NCBI GenBank assembly: GCA_000934665.2
Contig: KZ538113.1
Coordinates: 62,001-125,475, forward strand
Source: Catajapyx aquilonaris
Lineage: Eukaryota
Direction of reading: 5' to 3'
DNA: 63,475 nt
Shown: positions 41,871 through 63,229 of the stretch, piece by piece
Layout: every line of letters starts with the position of its first letter
Position numbering within the stretch: position 1 is the first letter of the stretch
Notes under the pieces: model-generated
What the model saw: the letters and a program-made list of their open reading frames with translations, nothing else
What the model was told of the DNA's origin: nothing
Databases searched by the model: none
Program-made: the position numbers and the translations under genes

Positions 41871-42921
41871 CTCAAATTTGACTCAATATGTGTACCCATT
41901 TAAATGCTGGGTTTATTTTTACAATGTTGTTAATTTTGCCTAAATTGCGCCGAAAAGGGGGCCTACTTTTATGGTGAGGGGAAAGGCGCATTGTTGTGGG
42001 TTTTGAGGAGAAAGCGACGCGGTACCCACAGGAAGGGGACGACCCAATTTGTGAGTGTCAGTCAGGGTACAGGTTTAGCTACTGATTAACTGTTGTATGT
42101 AAAATAATTCTGATAAGTACTAGGGAAATATGCAAATGGAGTTTATTTTAGAAATGCCATGCAAATATTGAAAGCTAATCTTAGGCTTTAAAAAGTCAGT
42201 TATGTTACAATTTCAATGGCAATTTTTTATGTTATTGTTCCGGCAGATTGCAATGTTTGGTTTATTGCCTATTGTTCCTTCAGAGGTGTATATTATGTAC
42301 CCAGGGTGTTTCTTTGTTATGGTTCCAGTAATTATTCAAATCTAAATATTTTACTGCGATAGGAACAACCAGATTTAAGTGTGGATCATTTTAGGGTTGT
42401 TGTATCGACAGTGAATGAAGAATATATTTCTCTTTACTATCAATCATTCTTGTTCATGACTTATACTTAGGCTTAAGACAGGTTGCACCAAATGGTAAAA
42501 TGTTGACCTCACTAGTTTTTTCATTGTTCAGAGCATTTAACCTGTATGAAAGATTTATTGTGGTATTGTACAATCCATTGCTGGTTGCACCTCAACCTGT
42601 AAAAACTGCTCTTCATTTTTTCCCCCATTTGGGAATGACTAGCGAACATTGCAAAAATGTTAAAATAAAAATAATTTACCTGACCTACAGATTGGGCAAT
42701 TTTTCATGGTCAAGAAAATTTTAAAACAGGACTCACTGATTTATAGAAATCCATTTTACATGCAGTTTAAACAATTTAAATTTTTTTTTTTCTAGGTGGA
42801 ACACAATTACTGAACAATGACACCAATATGCAACAAAAATGTGTTTCCTTCAGTTTATGGTGAATTCAGTTTTTTGCATTGTTGTGCTTTCCCTTCTAGG
42901 ACAAGGATGGCGAGATGAACA

Positions 42922-44130
42922 ATGAGTGATAGAGGCAACCCAGGCCCGGAGCCTCTGGACCCCCAGTACGCGACTGGGGGTTACCCGCCCCTGGGTGCGA
43001 CGAAAGACGACTTCCCCAACAACGCTGCTCCAACAACCACCACTGGGAAGGAGGAATTGGACTCAAACAATGGGCCCAACAATGCCACCAATGGCTCCAA
43101 GAGTGGGCTTCCTCCATTCAGCTCCTTTACGGATGAGGGTCTGGGTTCAAGACTGGTTGGAGATGGCTTCGGTGAGGCTCTCTCCGCTCGACTGTTGGAG
43201 CTCCAGCCATGGGAACTGTACGGTGAGGGCCTTACTGCTCGATTGTTGGACCGCGCCCCCAACAATGAGGAGGTACCTCCGGCGCAGTACCGTCCGTGGG
43301 AGAGCAAGACCGAGGCTACCTCTTCGTCATCCTCAACGTCCTCTACATCCTCTCTAATGAAGAACAATATACCTGCATTTTCGGACACGTTTGGAGGCCA
43401 GAAGCTGCCGTCTTTTCAGTCCCAGTTTTTTAATGAAGGGAATGGCGAAGTCATGCATCCGCCTCCACAGCTCCCGAGCTTCCACACACTAGGGGCAGCC
43501 CAAGTGCCACCCCCAGGCCACCCTCGCTACCCACTGGTACCAGCACCGATCCAAGCTCGTGAGGTCCCAGCCATCCAGCAGCAATTTCTGGATGAGCGCC
43601 ACATCCAACTCTTCCAGCCATTTCCAACAATGGCAGCGGCGGCGGCGGCTCTCGCCAACAATACTCAGTTTAACTCGCATCCACACCACTTGGGACCGCC
43701 TCCGCCTCTCCCTCCGCCTCATGCTATGCAACAGAATACTCAGGCCAAAAGTGCCGAAGAACCCCCAAAGCCCGACAACGGGACCAAGCCTCCGGAGGCT
43801 CCTGCGGTGACTCCGAGCAAACCTGAATCGCGTAAGAAGGAGAAGCGGAAAGCGCGTATGATGGACAATCATGGGCACGACGAAAACAACCAGGTGTCCA
43901 GTTCCGCCCCTGCCGACCCAGGTGGGGGAGGTGGTGGCCCAGACGGGTTCAAAGCACCAATGGTGCCCACAGACGATGGCGAGAAGCCAGTAAAGAAGAA
44001 ACGCAAGCGCTGTGGTGAGTGCGTGGGTTGCCAGCGCAAGGACAATTGTGGTGATTGTGCACCGTGCCGCAACGAAAAGAGCCACCAAATATGCAAGCTC
44101 CGAAGATGTGAGAAGCTCACTGAGAAGAAG
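42922..44130 (+). CDS. Tet: First coding exon of Tet (TET-family 5mC/6mA dioxygenase, DMAD-like): low-complexity N-terminus plus CXXC zinc finger; catalytic domain not in window
   Basis: Only long ORF in the window (416 aa). It ends in [46 protein letters not shown], which I recall as near-identical to the insect Tet CXXC domain. Pyrimidine tract plus AG acceptor (gctttcccttctag|g, exon starts 42900); in-frame TGA at 42916-42918 just upstream of ATG 42922; phase-0 donor AAG|GTAGGA at 44130/44131 directly after TEKK (403 codons). Confidence 0.9.
44011..44109 (+). other. CXXC zinc finger coding segment (short-linker, HQ-containing TET3/CXXC4/CXXC5 subtype)
   Basis: CxxCxxC-x5-CxxCxxC-x8-C-x4-C with 8 Cys, an HQ dipeptide, no KFGG motif, and a basic KKKRKR stretch immediately upstream. 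Confidence 0.95.
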
Positions 44131-45518
44131 GTAGGAGGGAAGAAGAAGCTGGTAGTCCATCCATTTTTTTAGCCTGCCTATTTTTCCTAATTATAAGACG
44201 CCGCATGTCCAAAGTGTCACCGCATGTGCTTGCTATGCATGTACCCAATTTGTAACAATTTAATGCACGAAAAGACAAAAACTGTATAAAGTGGATTAAA
44301 GTTTGATAGTTAACGCTCATTGTCACTTTGAAATGTAATCAAATGTAAAAATGCTGGAAATACAGCGCGGCAACAGCTTAAGCTGCTGATCCTCAACCGC
44401 CTTTATCACGCCAACATGGAATCATGCAGTGTAACCTCTCTACTAACAGTACAGTGAAATCAAATCCAATGCAAACTTTACTGAATAATATGATGCATAT
44501 GGATAGAGTGGAAACTTGTACATTATGGAAATTTTTGGTATAGCCAGTGCAGGAAATTATTGCCAACTGCGGTCAGGTTTTACTGCTTATTTGCTTGCAT
44601 GTAACAGGAAATTTCAGTGCAGCGACTCTGTTACAGACAGTTCGCATCTGTTGCAACCGTTTTGAGCACCTTTTTACTTTTTTAAAAATTCTCCTGATTC
44701 CACTTCCTGCCCTGGATTTCTTCAGTCAAGAGGTTAATCTGTGACAAATTTTTGAGGAGGGCGTCCACCACCCCTTGTGTTTGGGATATGGGGGGGAGAG
44801 CTTTTCTCTTGCATCCTCCACAGAGGAGAGAGGCACGAGGTAGGGAGAGAGAGAGAGAGAGAAAACGAGGGGTGTAGGATGAGCATAAGGGAACAGAGAG
44901 GAGGTAGGGGTAGAGTGGAAGCCACGCAAGAGTTCAAGTGCAAGCCCCCCCTCCCTTTTGGTCCTACCCTCCCCATTTTGATCGATCAGAGGGCTTGGGC
45001 TGTGCGCAATTGAAGCTGGCCGTGACTCATCAGCTGTTGGGAGACTCGTTGGGAAGGCCCCCTCACTGAACATGGGACACACACACCTTACCAATGTTGA
45101 CTCTGGTTGTTGAAAAATTTCTCAGATTTTGGATTGGAGATTGTGATGGAAAAATAACTCTGTGACGTCGTCACAAATTGGCGTCTGTTTTATTGAGTAG
45201 TGCAGAAAATAGATTTGCCAGTTGACAGGTTTTTTATTTGGCCAAAATCTGTTACCACTGATATATAGTTTAACTCGTTCCTATTTATGATGCGCATTAA
45301 ACGCACAGTTACATGTAGAGTATTACTGCACTGCTCTTGGATAGTGCAGAATAATATTGCTATGCACATTTGCGAACGTCAAAATCCATAAGTCATTGCA
45401 TCGTTGTATGATTGCAGTTGTTGGCATTGCGTGGTCAGAAACTGAATTTCGACTGATTTATTGAGCGTATGTTCAGTACTTCGTACAGTCCAGGCTGTTG
45501 GGTACATGAAATTATGTA

Positions 45519-51681: not shown

Positions 51682-53346
51682 CGGTCCCAAATGAGTAAAC
51701 AGGGCTATCCAACTGAACTGTCATAATTTTGGCTTAATTAAGATGCGTTTGCTGGAGACTGTCAGCATAATGTTGCTTTTTAGGCCAAATGGTAACACAG
51801 GGTAACGAAAAATTTAAAAAGCCTAATGGAAAGCCTTACTGGAAACTGCGGGCAGAATAATGTTGCTTTTAATATTGCGCCTAATGGTGACTCATAGCAA
51901 CAATATGAAGGTCTATTGGAAAAATAAATTTTGATTAATTTCTGGGTGTACACTTGTACAGTGTGGCTCTATCGTTTTCAATAGTTCTGAACAGACTGAC
52001 ATGGCGGGTTGTATCAACACAAATTAAGACATTATGCATACATTATGCAGTTGTCTGATATCGTACACAACCAACAAATCTGCTATGGAACTCATAAAAT
52101 TAATAGTGCCAAACTAGTTGAAAATTTAAGCACCATATGGTTCTTGTCACATGCTGACTACCGGATACAGTATCGACGTCCGAGTTGCTGAAATTTTAAT
52201 GTCTCCACTCCCTAAAATAGCAGCCATCTTTTGACTGGCCGGTTAGTTGACTTCTTCTGCCCTCCAGAAATGTCCACTGTTATGTTGTCCTAGGTTATGT
52301 ATGAGCACCGTTAGGGGTGAGTGGCCCCCCCCTCCTTATTTGCCTCACTATCTCCACCCACCCTAGTTTTTTTTCGAGGGGGAGTATGTAGGATACAAGA
52401 GTGGGTCATGGCAAACAGGTGTAATGTGGTTGGAGTCAACCTCCCCAAAAGCAAGGTCAAGGCGCTTCTCAAGACCAGTGGGCGCCATGTGAGTCTCTAC
52501 TCTCTAGCTGTCGGCTTTGGTCCGCTCGATACGGCTTCCATTCATGGCGAGGCCCGGCACAGCGTATAGTGTAATACCCGGAGCTCGTAGCGTAAAGTCT
52601 GCCAAGAGAAATGAGAGTTGCGCCCTGGAGTTTTTGGCATCGTGCCAAACCCGGCCGCCATTGCTGTCTGATACCATTACGCTCGGTACAGTTCCTTCTA
52701 ATTCTCAACACGGGGCCCGATGCTTCACTCCACGTGTTGAACCCAGCAGCTGCAAAATATTGGCAACACCTGCCCCGGGAGGGCTTGGCCAGCTGGGGGG
52801 AGTTTTATGCAGAGCAAATTGCAATTGCATTGTTGGATTGCTAGTAGTGGCTGGCAGGGTGCGATAGACTCCTGATTGGTTGTCAATTACCGGCTTTTCG
52901 CGCCCAAGTACTGGTTGTGTCTATTGTTGCGGAGGTAGAAGAAAGAAAAGGAAAGGAAAAAAAGGGACAACGGAACTGACCTCCAGATGGCGGCTGAGCA
53001 GAGCAGCTGGCCAGGGTTTCGAAATCCGGGACATCTGTACCGTGGTTTACTAGACTATGGCCGGATAATTTCGTTATCATATTGCATACGAACCTCATCA
53101 TCTTACAAAGCTGCCATGATGGACGAATCTGGCCAAAAATGTGGTTATGGAGGGCCATTAAACGGCCTTGAGGAAACAGGACCGGTTCTGGAACCGGCCC
53201 ACTATTTGGTTACTAAGGTCCTTAGCAACCAAATGGTGGATGGTTGCCGTGTTGCCAGACAATATTTAATGGTCATATCGTAACTCAGTGCCACCCGGTG
53301 CCACCAAATAGAAACATGCTCATCAATTTAAATACCTCGGGAAATA

Positions 53347-55308: not shown

Positions 55309-56117
55309 TTATAGTACTAATACTAGTGCTGTTGTTCAAGGGCCCCATAATTATTATAAGAGAAATAATATAAGCAAGGTGCCAATATGCGATTTGTTCA
55401 CCCCCCAGCAAAAGGTTTTTTTTTTTAAATTTTGTTGCGGCCCCGCGTGTGAATGACCCGCTTCTATGATTTCATAGCACATTGGCCTCTCTTACAGCTC
55501 TTCGGTTGTGGGAATCCCCCGTCGCACAGCAGCACCATGCATAACCTAGCCCAAAGTGTGTGCAAAAAGCCTCTCTCCAAAACCCCACCCACTATACCCC
55601 CCCTCCCCCCCTACCGTATTGATTTGTCAAACCTCTGGCCACATCTGGATGGATGTGTGGCCTGGGAAGCTACCTCCCTCCCCAACTATATAAGCTAGAA
55701 GTGGAAAATCCAGGCGAGACTACTCGAGCAATCGATCTTCCNCTCCTCCTCCTCTCCCCGCACCCGCGCGCACGGATTCTCAGACCTCAGTCCTAAACAC
55801 TCTGTGCTACCAGATCCATGTGGTTTTACTAGAGTACAGGCCTCCTCCCCCACCTATGGTCACCTCTTTTTGTTTAAAAAGGGGAGAGATATTCAGTACT
55901 TGACCCCACCCTCATTCCCTGTGCACCTGTACCCCCCTCCCTGCACCTGCTGACTGTATTGGTGCTGTTGTGGTGCTGTGGGTGTGAAGAAGTGTTATAG
56001 TGTGTTAACGCAAAACTTTGTGTACAAGTTATATATAGATATATATATAAAAAAACAGTGTTGTGTTGTATGAACCGGACGGTTTTGCTCCCGCCGTTAG
56101 TGTTTGTTAAACTACAG

Positions 56118-56130
56118 GTGTTCGGGACAG
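56118..56130 (+). CDS. Tet: Candidate 13-nt Tet microexon (V-F-G-T plus 1 nt)
   Basis: ctacag|GTGTTCGGGACAG|gtgagt: CAG acceptor and consensus donor. Phase-0 entry gives TEKK-VFGT-(D/G/E/A/V), resembling the post-CXXC KKIVFGADG sequence I recall from Drosophila Tet. Confidence 0.6.
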
Positions 56131-56279
56131 GTGAGTTTGGCAATTAGGCAACCGCGATGGATATATGACGCGCATGCGCATTCCTGCTGGTAGATCCGGA
56201 TGTGTACATGGAGTGCGCATGCGCAAGCCCCGCCCCATGATCCAATCGGTGAATCTCGTACGTTTATTTAAATCATATG

Positions 56280-56356: not shown

Positions 56357-57680
56357 TATGTATTTTTGTGGCCGAATCTCGGCAGTTTAATGAGCAATTA
56401 ATTGACCGTTAAAACCAGGCTTTACGTGATAATTAGACGAAAACGTACGAGGCCGATGGTACCCTGTTGCACCATTGTTGGTACAACTTACACCTAAGTT
56501 TGCACCTGTTATTATGCTCGTAGCTGTTAATAGCTGTAATGTACCACATTGTATGTTAACTGCCATTTAAATGATTGTTATTTTGACCAGTATGACATCA
56601 CTGTGTTACACAATCCACATTTTTTTTCCACCAAGGGTGAGTGACCTCCCAGCAATGACCGCACGTTTTAGGCGGGAAAAACACATGTGACCTGCTCCAA
56701 AAATACAGGTTGTAACATCCCCTATTGGGTGGGTCACCCCTCGTCCTTCCTCAGGTGTTGGAATCCACCTGACCCCCTCTTAAAAGAGGGGGTTCGACCC
56801 ACAGGGGTTGTCCTATAATAGCTTCGGATAGCCCCTCAGGGGGAAGGGGGTGAGGTATAAGTGAAGAGGGGAGGAAAAAAAATTTAAATAGGGGGCAAGG
56901 GGTCATACATATCAGGGTGTGTGTAGGGGGGAGACAAAAATTTTCCGGGCGTTCGTGCGTACATGTACCCCTTTCCCTATCGATTTTTTGGGGGGGCCTT
57001 TTCAGGCATTGCAGAGGTAATTTTCAGCAACGGGGTGCAGGGGGGATAAGGGGGTTGGTAGATACGAGGGGGGGACAGGACACGTCCCACTTCCTGATAG
57101 ATAAGATAGCTGCAAATATGCGGCCACCTCCTCGGTAACAACCTATAGGTTTGTAACTAACGTGTGTTTCATAAGTTGGCTCAATTACTAACAAACTTAA
57201 AATGTGACGGACAAGCTAAATTTTGAAACGTGGCATATTTTTGAGTAGCCTTCAAAAAGTTTTTACACCGATTAGAGCTTCTCTGGGCAAAGTCCAATCG
57301 GGCAAAGGGCCACGAGGGCACCTTTGCCTTTAAATATGTTCCTTTTTTTTTTGGTTTGTAAATGGCTGGGGCCAAGTTTACACCTATTCTGGCGGATGAC
57401 CAGAGAATGCGAGCGTTTAGATACAAGTTTTGGTCCAGGTATCGGTTTGTAGGATGAAGAGTCAAGATATGATATCATCCAATCACTCTAGAGAGTTGCA
57501 ACATCACATTTCCGTTTGTTACAAAGTTGTAGTTAGCAATGAAGCCCAATGAGCGACATTCAAATGGAATTTAATAATTAGTAAATGAAGCAGTGAACAA
57601 ACAACATGAAACACATAATATCACAAAATTGTTGAAGGTTTCAATCTACAATATTAAAATCCTTCGTTATATCTGAGGCT

Positions 57681-57850: not shown

Positions 57851-60800
57851 ATAGATATTGCCCTGTTAGCTGGTCAACACAGTTTCTGTCCAATCTAATA
57901 TCACATGGCGTTTTTTTCCACCAAATAACTGCTTCATAAAGAGCAACTTTGCACATAAATAGCCAGAACACATCCACAAAAATTGGCCTCTGAGGTCAAG
58001 CATCTGTGTACTAAATATAGCTGAGGGCTCCCCCACTAGTAACTGGATCTCCCCCAGGTGGGGGGTAATAGTTAACCTCAGGGGAGGTCCAAGCAGGGGA
58101 CATTCCACGTGCCCTTCGAACCGTCTTGATAATAATAATAAAAAAATCTCAGATTTACAAAATAGGGGCCTTTTTAAGGGGCACCTCTCGCACCTCATCC
58201 GTAAAATTCTAGGGGACAAGGTAAGATGAGGGGACTTTCCCCCCTTATGGTGGGGTCATAATTCCCCCTCTTCTCCCTCTGGGGGGGTCACGTGCCAATA
58301 TCACCAATAGAAGGGGGAACTGGTCTGGTGACCCTCTGGGTTTGGGTGACCCCTATCACCCATCTGCATACCCTTTTTTGGCTTGTTAAGATCCGACCCC
58401 ATGACTTGCGGATTAGCCTACTGACATAAGGGGTGGGGGAGAGAGACAGATAGAAAGAGAGAGAAGGGAGGAAAGGAAGGGTGGGGGGAGAAGATAGCCA
58501 TTAATTTGAGCTTGACTTATGAACACAAACCCTCCCTCCCTCTTAAAAAGTTTTGGTAGAGGGTGTGTTGAGTTGAGGGAGAATATTTTGGTATGCCAAC
58601 AGGTTATCGTCAGGTTTGTGAATTGTCTCGAGGTTTGTTTGTTCCGATGTGACACAATGCACGTTGCTCTCTCTCGCTTCTGTGGCAAACGGAGATCTTG
58701 TTCTTATCAGTAACAAAAGGAGAGCTCGAAACGCAAGCCATTGTGTTAGTCTACAACTTCATAATGCAAGCAACACGTGGGAGACGTAAGATTACCCCGG
58801 AGCTTTACTAAAAGTAGGCACGTACTATAAATAGCTGCAAGTTTCGTGATTAAAAGTATGCAAGGCTGTACTGCTATCATTCTGAATTGTAGAGGGCCAC
58901 AGACCTCAAAGGTCCTGTGTTTGATCCTCGAATCAGGCAGATTCATGTTTCATGAAATGATTCCTCATGTTTATTCCGTTATCCCCCCCAATATTTATGG
59001 CCTTAGTTGCTTGGACCAATTATCAAAAAAACCTATACCAATACTGAAATTGGCGATAATTGAGCGGTTGACATGGGAAAGGGCATAAGTCACAGAGAAA
59101 TGTGCATGAAAAATAAAATAAAATTGTATATATTTAAATGCTAAACTCATATTTTGCTTTTCTTTGACTCTCAATGACTTTTTGTAACAAAATCCAACAA
59201 TATAAAGGCTTTTGTGTAATGCTTTCAGGGTGTTCTCAAAACTGTTTTTGTGTGTGTGTGTGCAATTTATGCCATTTCCCATGTCAAAGCCTCAATTGTG
59301 ACAAAAGAGGCTCAACACGTTCACATATTGGCTAAACTGCATTAATATTTAATATTAAAATTTTGCGAATTTACACCATCAGTGTGATAAGAAGCATTTT
59401 TACCTTGCTCGAAACGCTCATACTTTCCTAGCTCAAGCACGTGTCTCCATTCGTAACACGCTCCTTGCAATTACGCAACCATCTCCTCCTGCTCCCCCCC
59501 CCCCTCCTTCTCCATGTGTGTACGAAGCTCTACCAACAACACACGTCACCGCCAACAATTTTAGCCGGCCGTGCAAGCCTTTATAATTCGAATCTTGGAG
59601 GAAGCTCTCCCAAGGCCGACCGCCGCCATAACAAAATATTCGCGCCCTTCGAAAAATGTTTTTGTGCGTCCGCCATTTTTATCCACCTGCTTTCCAAAAC
59701 TTTGCCCTGATGGGCCTCTAATGTTGCGGCAGGTTAAAATTAGCGACTTTTTAAACAATTTTGTGTGGAGATAAAAAAAAAAGTTCGATAAAAAAAGAGG
59801 GGGCGGNGGTCCAAAAAACAAGCGAAGGCCATCTCAGAGTTATCTGGGTGCGTATGCGTGCGTGTTCAGGGGGGGAAAGTCAGACCTTCTCTCCCGGTGC
59901 GGAAGGACTTCTTTTTCCAGTTCTCTGTGCTACAGTGTACTGTACAGGGACCGTACCAGTGTTTGGTTACAACTTAAAAGACAACGCCCAAAAAGTTCAT
60001 CATCCGGGTAGGTCTTTTCTTGCTGTGCAGTTGACTCGTTGTGAAGAGTGCAGTAATCAAAAGTGAAGCGGCCATCAAGGCCATTATGTATAGCTTTGCG
60101 CCATGACCTCAACCGGCTGTATACCAGAAATACGGTTGTTTGTTCGAGGTAAAAGCCAAGGGGGGTATTTTTGAGGACGATTAGAAAACTTCGACTTATT
60201 TTGTGAGGGTGATTTTTGACCCGTTTGTAATGCATGGGGTTCATGAGAGTGGGAAGAAAAGAAAGAAGCGATAGAGGAAACAAAAAAAGGAGGTCACCTC
60301 GAAATCCTTGAGCTGAGGTGACCAAGAATATTCAGTGGTTGAATCTAGTGGCGTTTAAGGATGTAGACGGGACAGCATTTAAATGTACAAGGTGGTACAC
60401 TGCCCAAGACCTTGGTTAGAAAAGGGTGAAGAATTTGGTTGGTTTATAGAAACACTGGAGCAATGCACCATCCTGTATTATGTAGGAAAAGACGGTGTCT
60501 GATTTTACTGTTCAATCAGAAGCGTCTCCTGAATATTTCTAAATGTCTGATTCGATGGTGGTTGCCGCCACGATTCTCCTGTATTACGAATTCGACTAGG
60601 AGAAAAAGCGCTGTTGTCACATTTCGAAATGCAGCAAAGCCCCAAGTTAATTTTTGTGTAACAGTTGAAATATTTGCCAATATGTGCATGGCTTCAAATA
60701 TGCGGAGTTAATTTTGATGGCATTGATAATATTTCAGTATTGCAATGGAATGTTAATTAACGCTATGACTTAAGCAGGGATCGCAATGTGTGCCAATTGC

Positions 60801-62034: not shown

Positions 62035-63229
62035 GACTGTACAGTACATGCTCGATATACTCGATATTTAGTTCATCCTGTAAATTTTGATGCCCACATG
62101 GGCGCGAGCTGGCACGTTCCGGTCCGTGCCGTCCGTTCCAGTCGGTACCACCCTCCCAAATTTTTTAGTATGTCAGGGACACCGCCGGTTAACCCTCAAA
62201 AAATGATGACCACTGGAGTGAATAAGAGGATAGGATCCCGTTATCCTTCTCTTCAGGAGTAGGAGGGGGGGCCTTTTTTTCAAAAAAAAAAAATGGCAAA
62301 AGTCTTACAGAGAGAGCATGCGCGCCAGGTCGGCGACCCCTCCCTAGAAAAATCCGTAACTGGCACATCCACGTGTTGCCAACCATCCTCCTTTTTAACC
62401 TAGCCAAGCCAAGCCTAGAAGAATTTGCACTTTGGCATCACCAAGCCAAAGACCACGTGATTTTTCGGTGGCCCTCTTTTTTTCCCCCCTCGTCTCATTG
62501 TGGAGGAGAAGCTTGGGAGAGAGAAACCAGTCTCGCTTCTGGACTCCGGATTGTTCAGTGGTTCTGTCTGTGCGGTTTTTTACGGGCGCGTGTGTTGTTG
62601 CCATTGGGACTCCTTTTGAGGGCAGTGTAAGTAGAACGGTTCTGTGGGTCAAAGAAAGTACGGAGAGGAGCAAAAGGGGGGGCTTGTTTTCTGTGTACGT
62701 TCGCACGTGCGGCCATAACGGAAACGTGTTGGCGAAAACTGGTCGCGTCCAGTGAGCGAAACGGAAACTGTGGGTGTGTCACGTGTAGGTTTGAAGCTGC
62801 GTGTATCTAGTGGACATTGGCAAGTACAGCAGACTTAACCTTCGTACAGTACTCTCGAAGTCGCTTCAGGCCGTTGCCCCAGTTTTAAACTGAATTAATA
62901 TCAGCTTCGCAAATAAAATTCCCATTCATGTAGACTAGTTGGAATATGCTATTCATGGCTGTCTACTGTTATAACAGTTGTTACGAAGTGTTTGCCAATA
63001 TATACTGGAACGTGGCATGTTCAGTTTTAGCCACAAACAATATGCCATCATTGATAGCGTAAATAGTAACAGTCCTGAAATAACTGATAAAAATAAATAG
63101 CTTGGTACCAAAAAGTCGCCAACCATTATTGGACACTCATAAATGGAGGCATGTGTACTATTTATTCAATTTCCAACGTACAGCACGTAGGATTTTTCAC
63201 TATTTACCTGATTTTCACAGAAGGTCATA

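Follow-up and report, generated by a model that had tools for sequence, protein, structure and literature searches.

The window, a stretch of 63,475 nt of the Catajapyx aquilonaris genome that stops at the end of its contig (C218), carries the 5′ part of a gene for Tet, an enzyme that modifies methylated DNA. The Tet N-terminus, with its CXXC finger, is encoded by an open frame at 42919–44130, whose 3′ boundary can be read directly as AAG/gtagga at 44130, in phase 0 (Table 1). The finger matches PF02008 (zf-CXXC, E = 2e-07), the feature by which the long isoform of metazoan Tet is recognized, and the closest named homologs of the exon's protein are insect Tet proteins, for example those of cricket and mayfly; the gene had been called Tet in the initial annotation, and both lines of evidence uphold that call. 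A CXXC exon of the Tet kind occurs once in the genome (one of two candidates). Upstream of it, positions 1–42899 contain no ORF of at least 100 amino acids with an obvious identity in the ORF list, and this region is probably for the most part Tet 5′ intron.

Matches to the Tet catalytic domain fall on two other contigs, C803 and C1215. C803 bears the Cys-rich and Tet_JBP catalytic domain, and its exon at C803:8751 begins APVMPFF, the counterpart of the APxVMPFY exon of orthologs; C1215 gave no match to the APVMPFF/APxVMPFY exon. C803 rather than C1215 is therefore taken as the continuation of the Tet gene in the window, and we infer that C218 and C803 hold two parts of one gene. Searches of the genome with the contig ends found no contig bridging the two. 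At C1215:49100–51650 (L009, L010) the matches mark another Tet gene, compact and with no corresponding CXXC exon; its catalytic motifs HKD, HAT and RISLVFY are intact, its catalytic fold has a very short insert, and at about 51910 comes a C2H2-like exon. The honeybee study (PMC4150289) refers to one invertebrate ortholog.

Table 1. Features of the Tet locus (positions of the window unless a contig is named)
Feature	Position	Strand	Remarks
Tet CXXC exon	42900..44130	+	ATG 42922; zf-CXXC about 43993-44109; last residues EKLTEKK, phase 0; donor gtagga
TG/GT-rich stretch	55939..56117	+	180 nt, TG/GT 0.294; possible splicing-regulator site
(TA)n, TATA-box-like run	56030..56053	+	lacks a canonical Inr at the expected spacing
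In-frame ATG	56070..56072	+	unlikely start
Alternative 30-nt in-frame exon (rival reading)	56101..56130	+	TAG acceptor 56098-56100; 12/15 pyrimidines; 42 nt AG-free
Candidate 13-nt microexon	56118..56130	+	VFGT and one further base; phase 0 to 1; AG and GT flanks
Consensus 5′ splice site gtgagt	56131..56136	+	rank 1 of 1176 GT sites of the intron
Formal 2-nt partner candidate	57015..57016	+	unlikely
Best partner candidate	58213..58220	+	8-nt exon; donor gtaaga, second-best in the intron; acceptor weak (-0.8)
Weaker partner candidate	58603..58613	+	11 nt; weak donor
Weak partner candidate	62257..62258	+	acceptor ranks 1 of 1065 intronic AG sites; a poor donor lies 2 nt on
Candidate exon on the second contig	C803:1027-1086 (L005)		60 nt, VSNRSESKMDVRGRQNSSNM; best of 6 candidates there; phase 0

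A 13-nt candidate exon next to the strongest donor of the intron

Twelve kilobases downstream of the CXXC exon, within the long intron, the window reads ctacag/GTGTTCGGGACAG/gtgagt, the 13-nt pattern that the initial annotation had described. Both in size (at most 30 nt) and in having AG and GT at its borders, it qualifies as a candidate microexon. Splice sites were scored with a generic matrix of rounded metazoan frequencies rather than one trained on the Catajapyx genome. By this measure, its donor is the best in the intron, and its CAG acceptor, with pyrimidines at 8 of 15 positions and the preceding AG 17 nt away, lies outside the top 15 of 1,065 AG sites. The candidate as a whole ranks first among 29 short-exon candidates in the intron of the window. 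An antisense control of 168,564 nt contained no candidate of equal strength. In simulated introns the mean was 0.010 at thresholds set post hoc, rising to 0.39–12 at looser ones; of 300 such introns, 25 had a donor as strong as this and 13 had one with a YAG within 30 nt.

The flank 5′ of the candidate is TG-rich, as had been noted, and 2 of the 951 windows of the intron had a value as high as that in Table 1; a UG-binding regulator acting on the exon is a guess from this flank alone. Since the top donor of the intron coincides with near-highest TG richness, some exon probably ends at 56130, and the donor at 56131 is probably functional. The confirmation extends to the pattern, which is moderately beyond chance, and not to its splicing; we would give even odds that the 13-nt form has a real role of some kind. 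Its length is not a multiple of 3 and thus runs against the usual pattern of coding microexons, a typical rather than a defining property that holds for 71.7% of those in the fly (PMC8042270).

Several variants of the exon were considered and rejected. An assembly slip hiding a 12-nt exon was judged unlikely, with 5,867 nt of Tet coding exons containing 330 short G runs all open. For a read-through terminal exon (stop at 56145), the nearest AWTAAA lies 1.5 kb away and the donor is strong, and a 72-nt form from the CAG at 56056–56058 contains a stop. Two further AG–GT candidates with good scores, 52268–52316 (49 nt) and 56591–56636 (46 nt), showed no likeness to ortholog linkers by eye.

Optional cassettes after the CXXC exon in insect Tet proteins

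In the long form of insect Tet, EKLTEKK is followed by an optional RRGRGKG cassette, a [SG]YR[GN]K exon and the APxVMPFY exon, in this order. Models with and without the cassette coexist in 12 of 21 insect genera and the other nine show inclusion only, in a tally that left out CXXC-less and read-through models and in a survey biased to in-frame forms because protein databases cannot show out-of-frame isoforms. Where measured (10 genera), the cassette is in frame and 20–29 amino acids long. Most of the CXXC matches listed (150 and 120) read on into the intron and are uninformative on the junction. The position first proposed for the candidate is thus borne out, as the optional small exons of insect Tet proteins sit directly after EKLTEKK. 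The proposed motif survives in part: a hydrophobic-[YF]-G start is found in three of the nine insect orders sampled (mayfly, beetles and flies), and VFGxD in none. Such a start opens 14 of the 24 distinct cassette starts caught by the search pattern, the muscoid flies have EPKAKQ-[IV]VYGPDG after EKLTEKK, and the cassettes of bugs and of bees and ants, which the pattern did not catch, do not begin in this way.

Against one set of cassettes per order, VFGT scored p = 0.041 for the order mean and 0.084 for the best hit (3,578 null peptides), consistent with a modest likeness to ortholog cassette starts. Extended by one unknown residue and the exon at C803:1027, it can be aligned without gaps to the mayfly cassette P0002, with FG, RSESK and GR in common (p = 0.083 over 20 orthologs); this alignment suggests that VFGT and the C803:1027 exon may be pieces of one ancestral cassette that needs 2 (or 5, or 8) more bases. 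Read past the donor, 56118–56147 gives VFGTGEFGN and then a stop, a peptide that is loosely cassette-like (p = 0.054 for the best hit, 0.12 for the mean), probably by virtue of donor sequences translating as Gly-Glu.

Like the insect cassette, the candidate starts after EKLTEKK in phase 0 and can be skipped in frame (compare the isoform pairs P0010/P0046, P0234/P0260 and P0277/P0248), and it shares the hydrophobic-[YF]-G start of mayfly, beetles and flies. Unlike that cassette, it does not have the RxES-RRGRGKG sequence, of which only RSESK and RGR are seen here, at C803:1027–1086, a separate exon at a distance of over 8 kb, and it would reach an in-frame total length only with a 3n + 2 partner or in the 30-nt form. 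A six-frame search of the window and of C803:1–8750 with a profile of 22 linkers found nothing significant for an RRGRGKG exon (best E = 0.19), and a degenerate RGRGKGRG pattern gave 18 matches in the genome, none of them exon-like, against 13 for the reversed control. A query of the genome with the mayfly linker returned no match, an empty result that carries no weight. A pattern scan of metagenomes gave 51 loci, one of them Tet (L086), a fly-like spliced transcript and thus free of intron information. In the mosquito, comparison of P0246 with P0285 shows one isoform with a second, similar RGRG cassette, which suggests a duplication of the cassette exon.

Skipping would keep the reading frame

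When 44130 is joined to C803:1027 or to C803:8751, both in phase 0, the frame stays open. Inclusion of the 13 nt alone leads to a stop at C803:1047, after at most 12 codons, and joining them to C803:8751 leads to a stop within about 90 codons. The initial annotation had proposed that skipping shifts the frame and uncouples the CXXC finger from the catalytic domain; it is lone inclusion that stops the frame and skipping that is harmless, so the on/off reading is reversed. For the visible exons, skipping should do no damage unless an unseen constitutive 3n + 2 exon intervenes, and a switch that uncouples by skipping is not supported.

VFGT lies in the frame of the ATG at 56070, as had been pointed out. 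As the start of a CXXC-less protein, however, this ATG would lead into the out-of-frame 13-nt junction, it sits 17 nt beyond the end of the sole TATA-like stretch, and orthologs mostly begin their short forms at a Met within the next two conserved exons or close to them. The exon at C803:1027–1086, which begins with GT and could easily be missed by gene finders, contains two Met that could start a CXXC-less Tet. Farther along C803 (also L005) is a possible 10-nt exon at C803:7573–7582, with the best acceptor of 493 AG sites in that stretch and a weak donor.

Four candidates for a frame-restoring partner are given in Table 1. With the best of them, the two top donors of the intron lie at the ends of a 13-nt and an 8-nt exon, which together make seven open codons. 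Among 500 simulated introns, pairs of this 13 + 8 type appeared in 2 at a donor score of at least 6.9, a threshold chosen post hoc after the 8-nt donor had been seen, and in 55 and 194 at 5.5 and 4.5, respectively; compared with orthologs, the 13 + 8 model gave p = 0.040. The donor after 62257–62258, gtaggaggg, is identical over nine bases to the intron opening at 44131.

A proposed paired cassette and competing explanations

The reading that we prefer, at a probability of roughly 0.4, is that the 13 nt are the 5′ piece of an optional cassette and are included together with a frame-restoring partner, for which 58213–58220 is the best candidate. It starts from what is observed, namely the sequence, the phases and the isoform pattern of orthologs. 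From these we infer the splicing, the link between C218 and C803, the partner and the co-regulation. The 13 nt would be a microexon subject to alternative splicing in the long Tet mRNA, the one with CXXC, and would encode the first residues of an optional linker cassette behind the CXXC finger. This cassette would lie in pieces, first the 13 nt, then a small 3n + 2 exon (the 8 nt, or else something in the gap between the contigs) and then the 60-nt exon on C803. Provided that the small exons are taken in or skipped jointly, both main mRNAs would keep the frame and would differ by about seven linker residues. The effect would be the tuning of a disordered linker and not an on/off switch, with a few residues gained or lost behind a DNA-binding finger as the likely outcome of the splicing choice.

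In favour of the paired cassette are the top-ranking donor adjoining a very TG-rich stretch, the isoforms of orthologs with and without the cassette, and the Tet micro-exons of Drosophila and honeybee. Against it, the peptide similarity is weak and the FG-type start is missing from six of nine orders, the acceptor of the 8-nt partner is weak, the RRGRGKG exon was not found, and fly microexons tend to be multiples of 3. In addition, the 25-amino-acid extra exon of the honeybee has the length of the bee/ant cassette, suggesting that the cassette is a single exon elsewhere.

A further point against pairing is the TAG acceptor 17 nt upstream, overlooked in the initial annotation, which has the better pyrimidine tract and would dispense with a partner. 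Spliced from this TAG to the donor at 56131, a 30-nt exon would be in frame alone and would add 10 residues, the VFG match being coincidental. We regard this as unlikely, albeit the rival with most in its favour: its tract and AG-free interval (Table 1) compare well with the 8 of 15 pyrimidines and 17 nt of the CAG, the TAG is the first AG past a possible branch A near 56074, and the exon is open in frame with both C803:1027 and 8751, fits the bias towards multiples of 3 and has an anchored peptide score of p = 0.051 (2,686 null peptides). However, alignment to whole cassettes is at random level (p = 0.47; best hit p = 0.23), the matrix score is −1.2 compared with 2.7 for the CAG, and the two cysteines of its peptide are unlike the ortholog linkers seen. 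Both acceptors may be in use.

Alternatively, the donor at 56131 could belong to an alternative first exon, transcribed from a promoter inside the intron and leading into a Tet-short mRNA that lacks CXXC. The start codon would then be a Met in C803:1027–1086, so that acceptor and frame would be irrelevant, and a strong donor beside mediocre acceptors would be accounted for. Precedents are the Drosophila Tet-short from an alternative promoter (PMC12560471) and the CXXC-minus mRNAs of the honeybee that begin at micro-exons 6 and 7 (PMC4150289). The TATA-like run at 56030–56053 could serve such a promoter, but (TA)n runs are common, no canonical Inr was found 25–30 nt past this one, and a loose Inr (56097) and a DPE-like site (56125) miss the Drosophila spacing by one base. 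The VFG register is also left unexplained. We consider this origin quite unlikely.

That the pattern is unused intronic sequence is similarly improbable. Chance alone produced such a donor in some simulated introns (25 of 300), the peptide p values lie at 0.04–0.08 and no partner is proven; on the other side, the best donor coincides with near-highest TG richness, and the 168,564 antisense nt hold no equal.

If the 13 nt were a poison exon, their inclusion alone would shift the frame into the stop at C803:1047 and lead to mRNA decay or a stand-alone CXXC protein, which is the switch of the initial annotation with its sign reversed. A premature stop within 12 codons does follow from inclusion without a co-included partner, and a search of the window and of C803:1–8750 revealed no conserved partner; yet an 8-nt partner candidate exists, and such an exon would have no reason to preserve the FG register of orthologs. 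We hold this role to be doubtful, and no Tet poison exon was found in the literature by title or beginning of abstract. A recursive-splicing ratchet point (AG/GT), whose cryptic 13-nt exon would be spliced out every time, is the least probable: the candidate does start with GT, and the cryptic RS-exons of the fly are short and mostly out of frame, but the acceptor is mediocre and the downstream donor, at a score of 8.2, exceeds the regenerated one (0.3), the opposite of the usual pattern (PMC8605326).

Comparison with known small Tet exons

The candidate is plausible as a small exon at a spot where small Tet exons are known. Alternative small exons that follow the CXXC exon of Tet are in print for bee and fly, as are CXXC-less and CXXC-only transcripts; since this general picture is already published, a specialist will find little surprise in it. 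For annotation, exons missed by gene finders are flagged here in a gene divided between two contigs. If the paired model is true, a chromatin enzyme would have mutually dependent frame-shifting microexons, and with them a testable means of adjusting how much full-length Tet is made relative to the CXXC-only product; no frame-shifting Tet microexon was found by title in the literature, which is a weak negative.

Neural microexons that depend on eMIC/Srrm234 have a long AG exclusion zone, a UCUC-rich tract, a strong CUAAY branch point and a weak donor (PMC8797185). The candidate departs from this type, with an AG 17 nt upstream, no YTRAY past 56005 and the strongest donor of the intron, and Tet was not found in one supplementary file of that study.

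The nearest likeness is ME236 of Drosophila Tet (FlyBase), an in-frame microexon of 18 nt that appears in a list of coding microexons subject to alternative splicing (PMC8042270). Its listed sequence translates to EPKAKT, which fits the EPKAK after EKLTEKK in muscoid flies and would therefore place it at the same position as the candidate. Both would thus be small, alternatively spliced coding exons of Tet; ME236 is in frame and RNA-supported, whereas the 13-nt exon is out of frame alone, unrelated in sequence and predicted. Drosophila Tet-long and Tet-short arise from alternative promoters, and exon 4 is alternatively spliced (PMC12560471).

In the honeybee, micro-exons 5–8 of AmTET resemble the candidate in being numbered after the CXXC exon and variable in inclusion, micro-exons 5 and 8 varying among CXXC-bearing transcripts, and one extra exon encodes 25 amino acids. 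About 10% of the transcripts are stand-alone CXXC; CXXC-minus and CXXC-only transcripts both exist, the former from alternative 5′ ends and not by frameshift (PMC4150289).

One bolder reading, which we consider improbable, is that an ancestral in-frame linker exon was split into two frame-shifting microexons (13 and 8 nt, 2 kb apart) that act as a splicing gate. If it were true, both exons or neither would yield full Tet, and regulated single inclusion would yield either CXXC as a protein on its own or an mRNA that decays. In vertebrates, the CXXC domain is likewise found apart from the catalytic domain, in TET2 and IDAX/CXXC4 and in the short forms of TET1 and TET3. This separation resembles the switch first proposed for the candidate, but there it is achieved by gene splitting or alternative promoters and not by a frame-shifting microexon; a two-exon gate would be a functional counterpart of the TET2/IDAX gene split.
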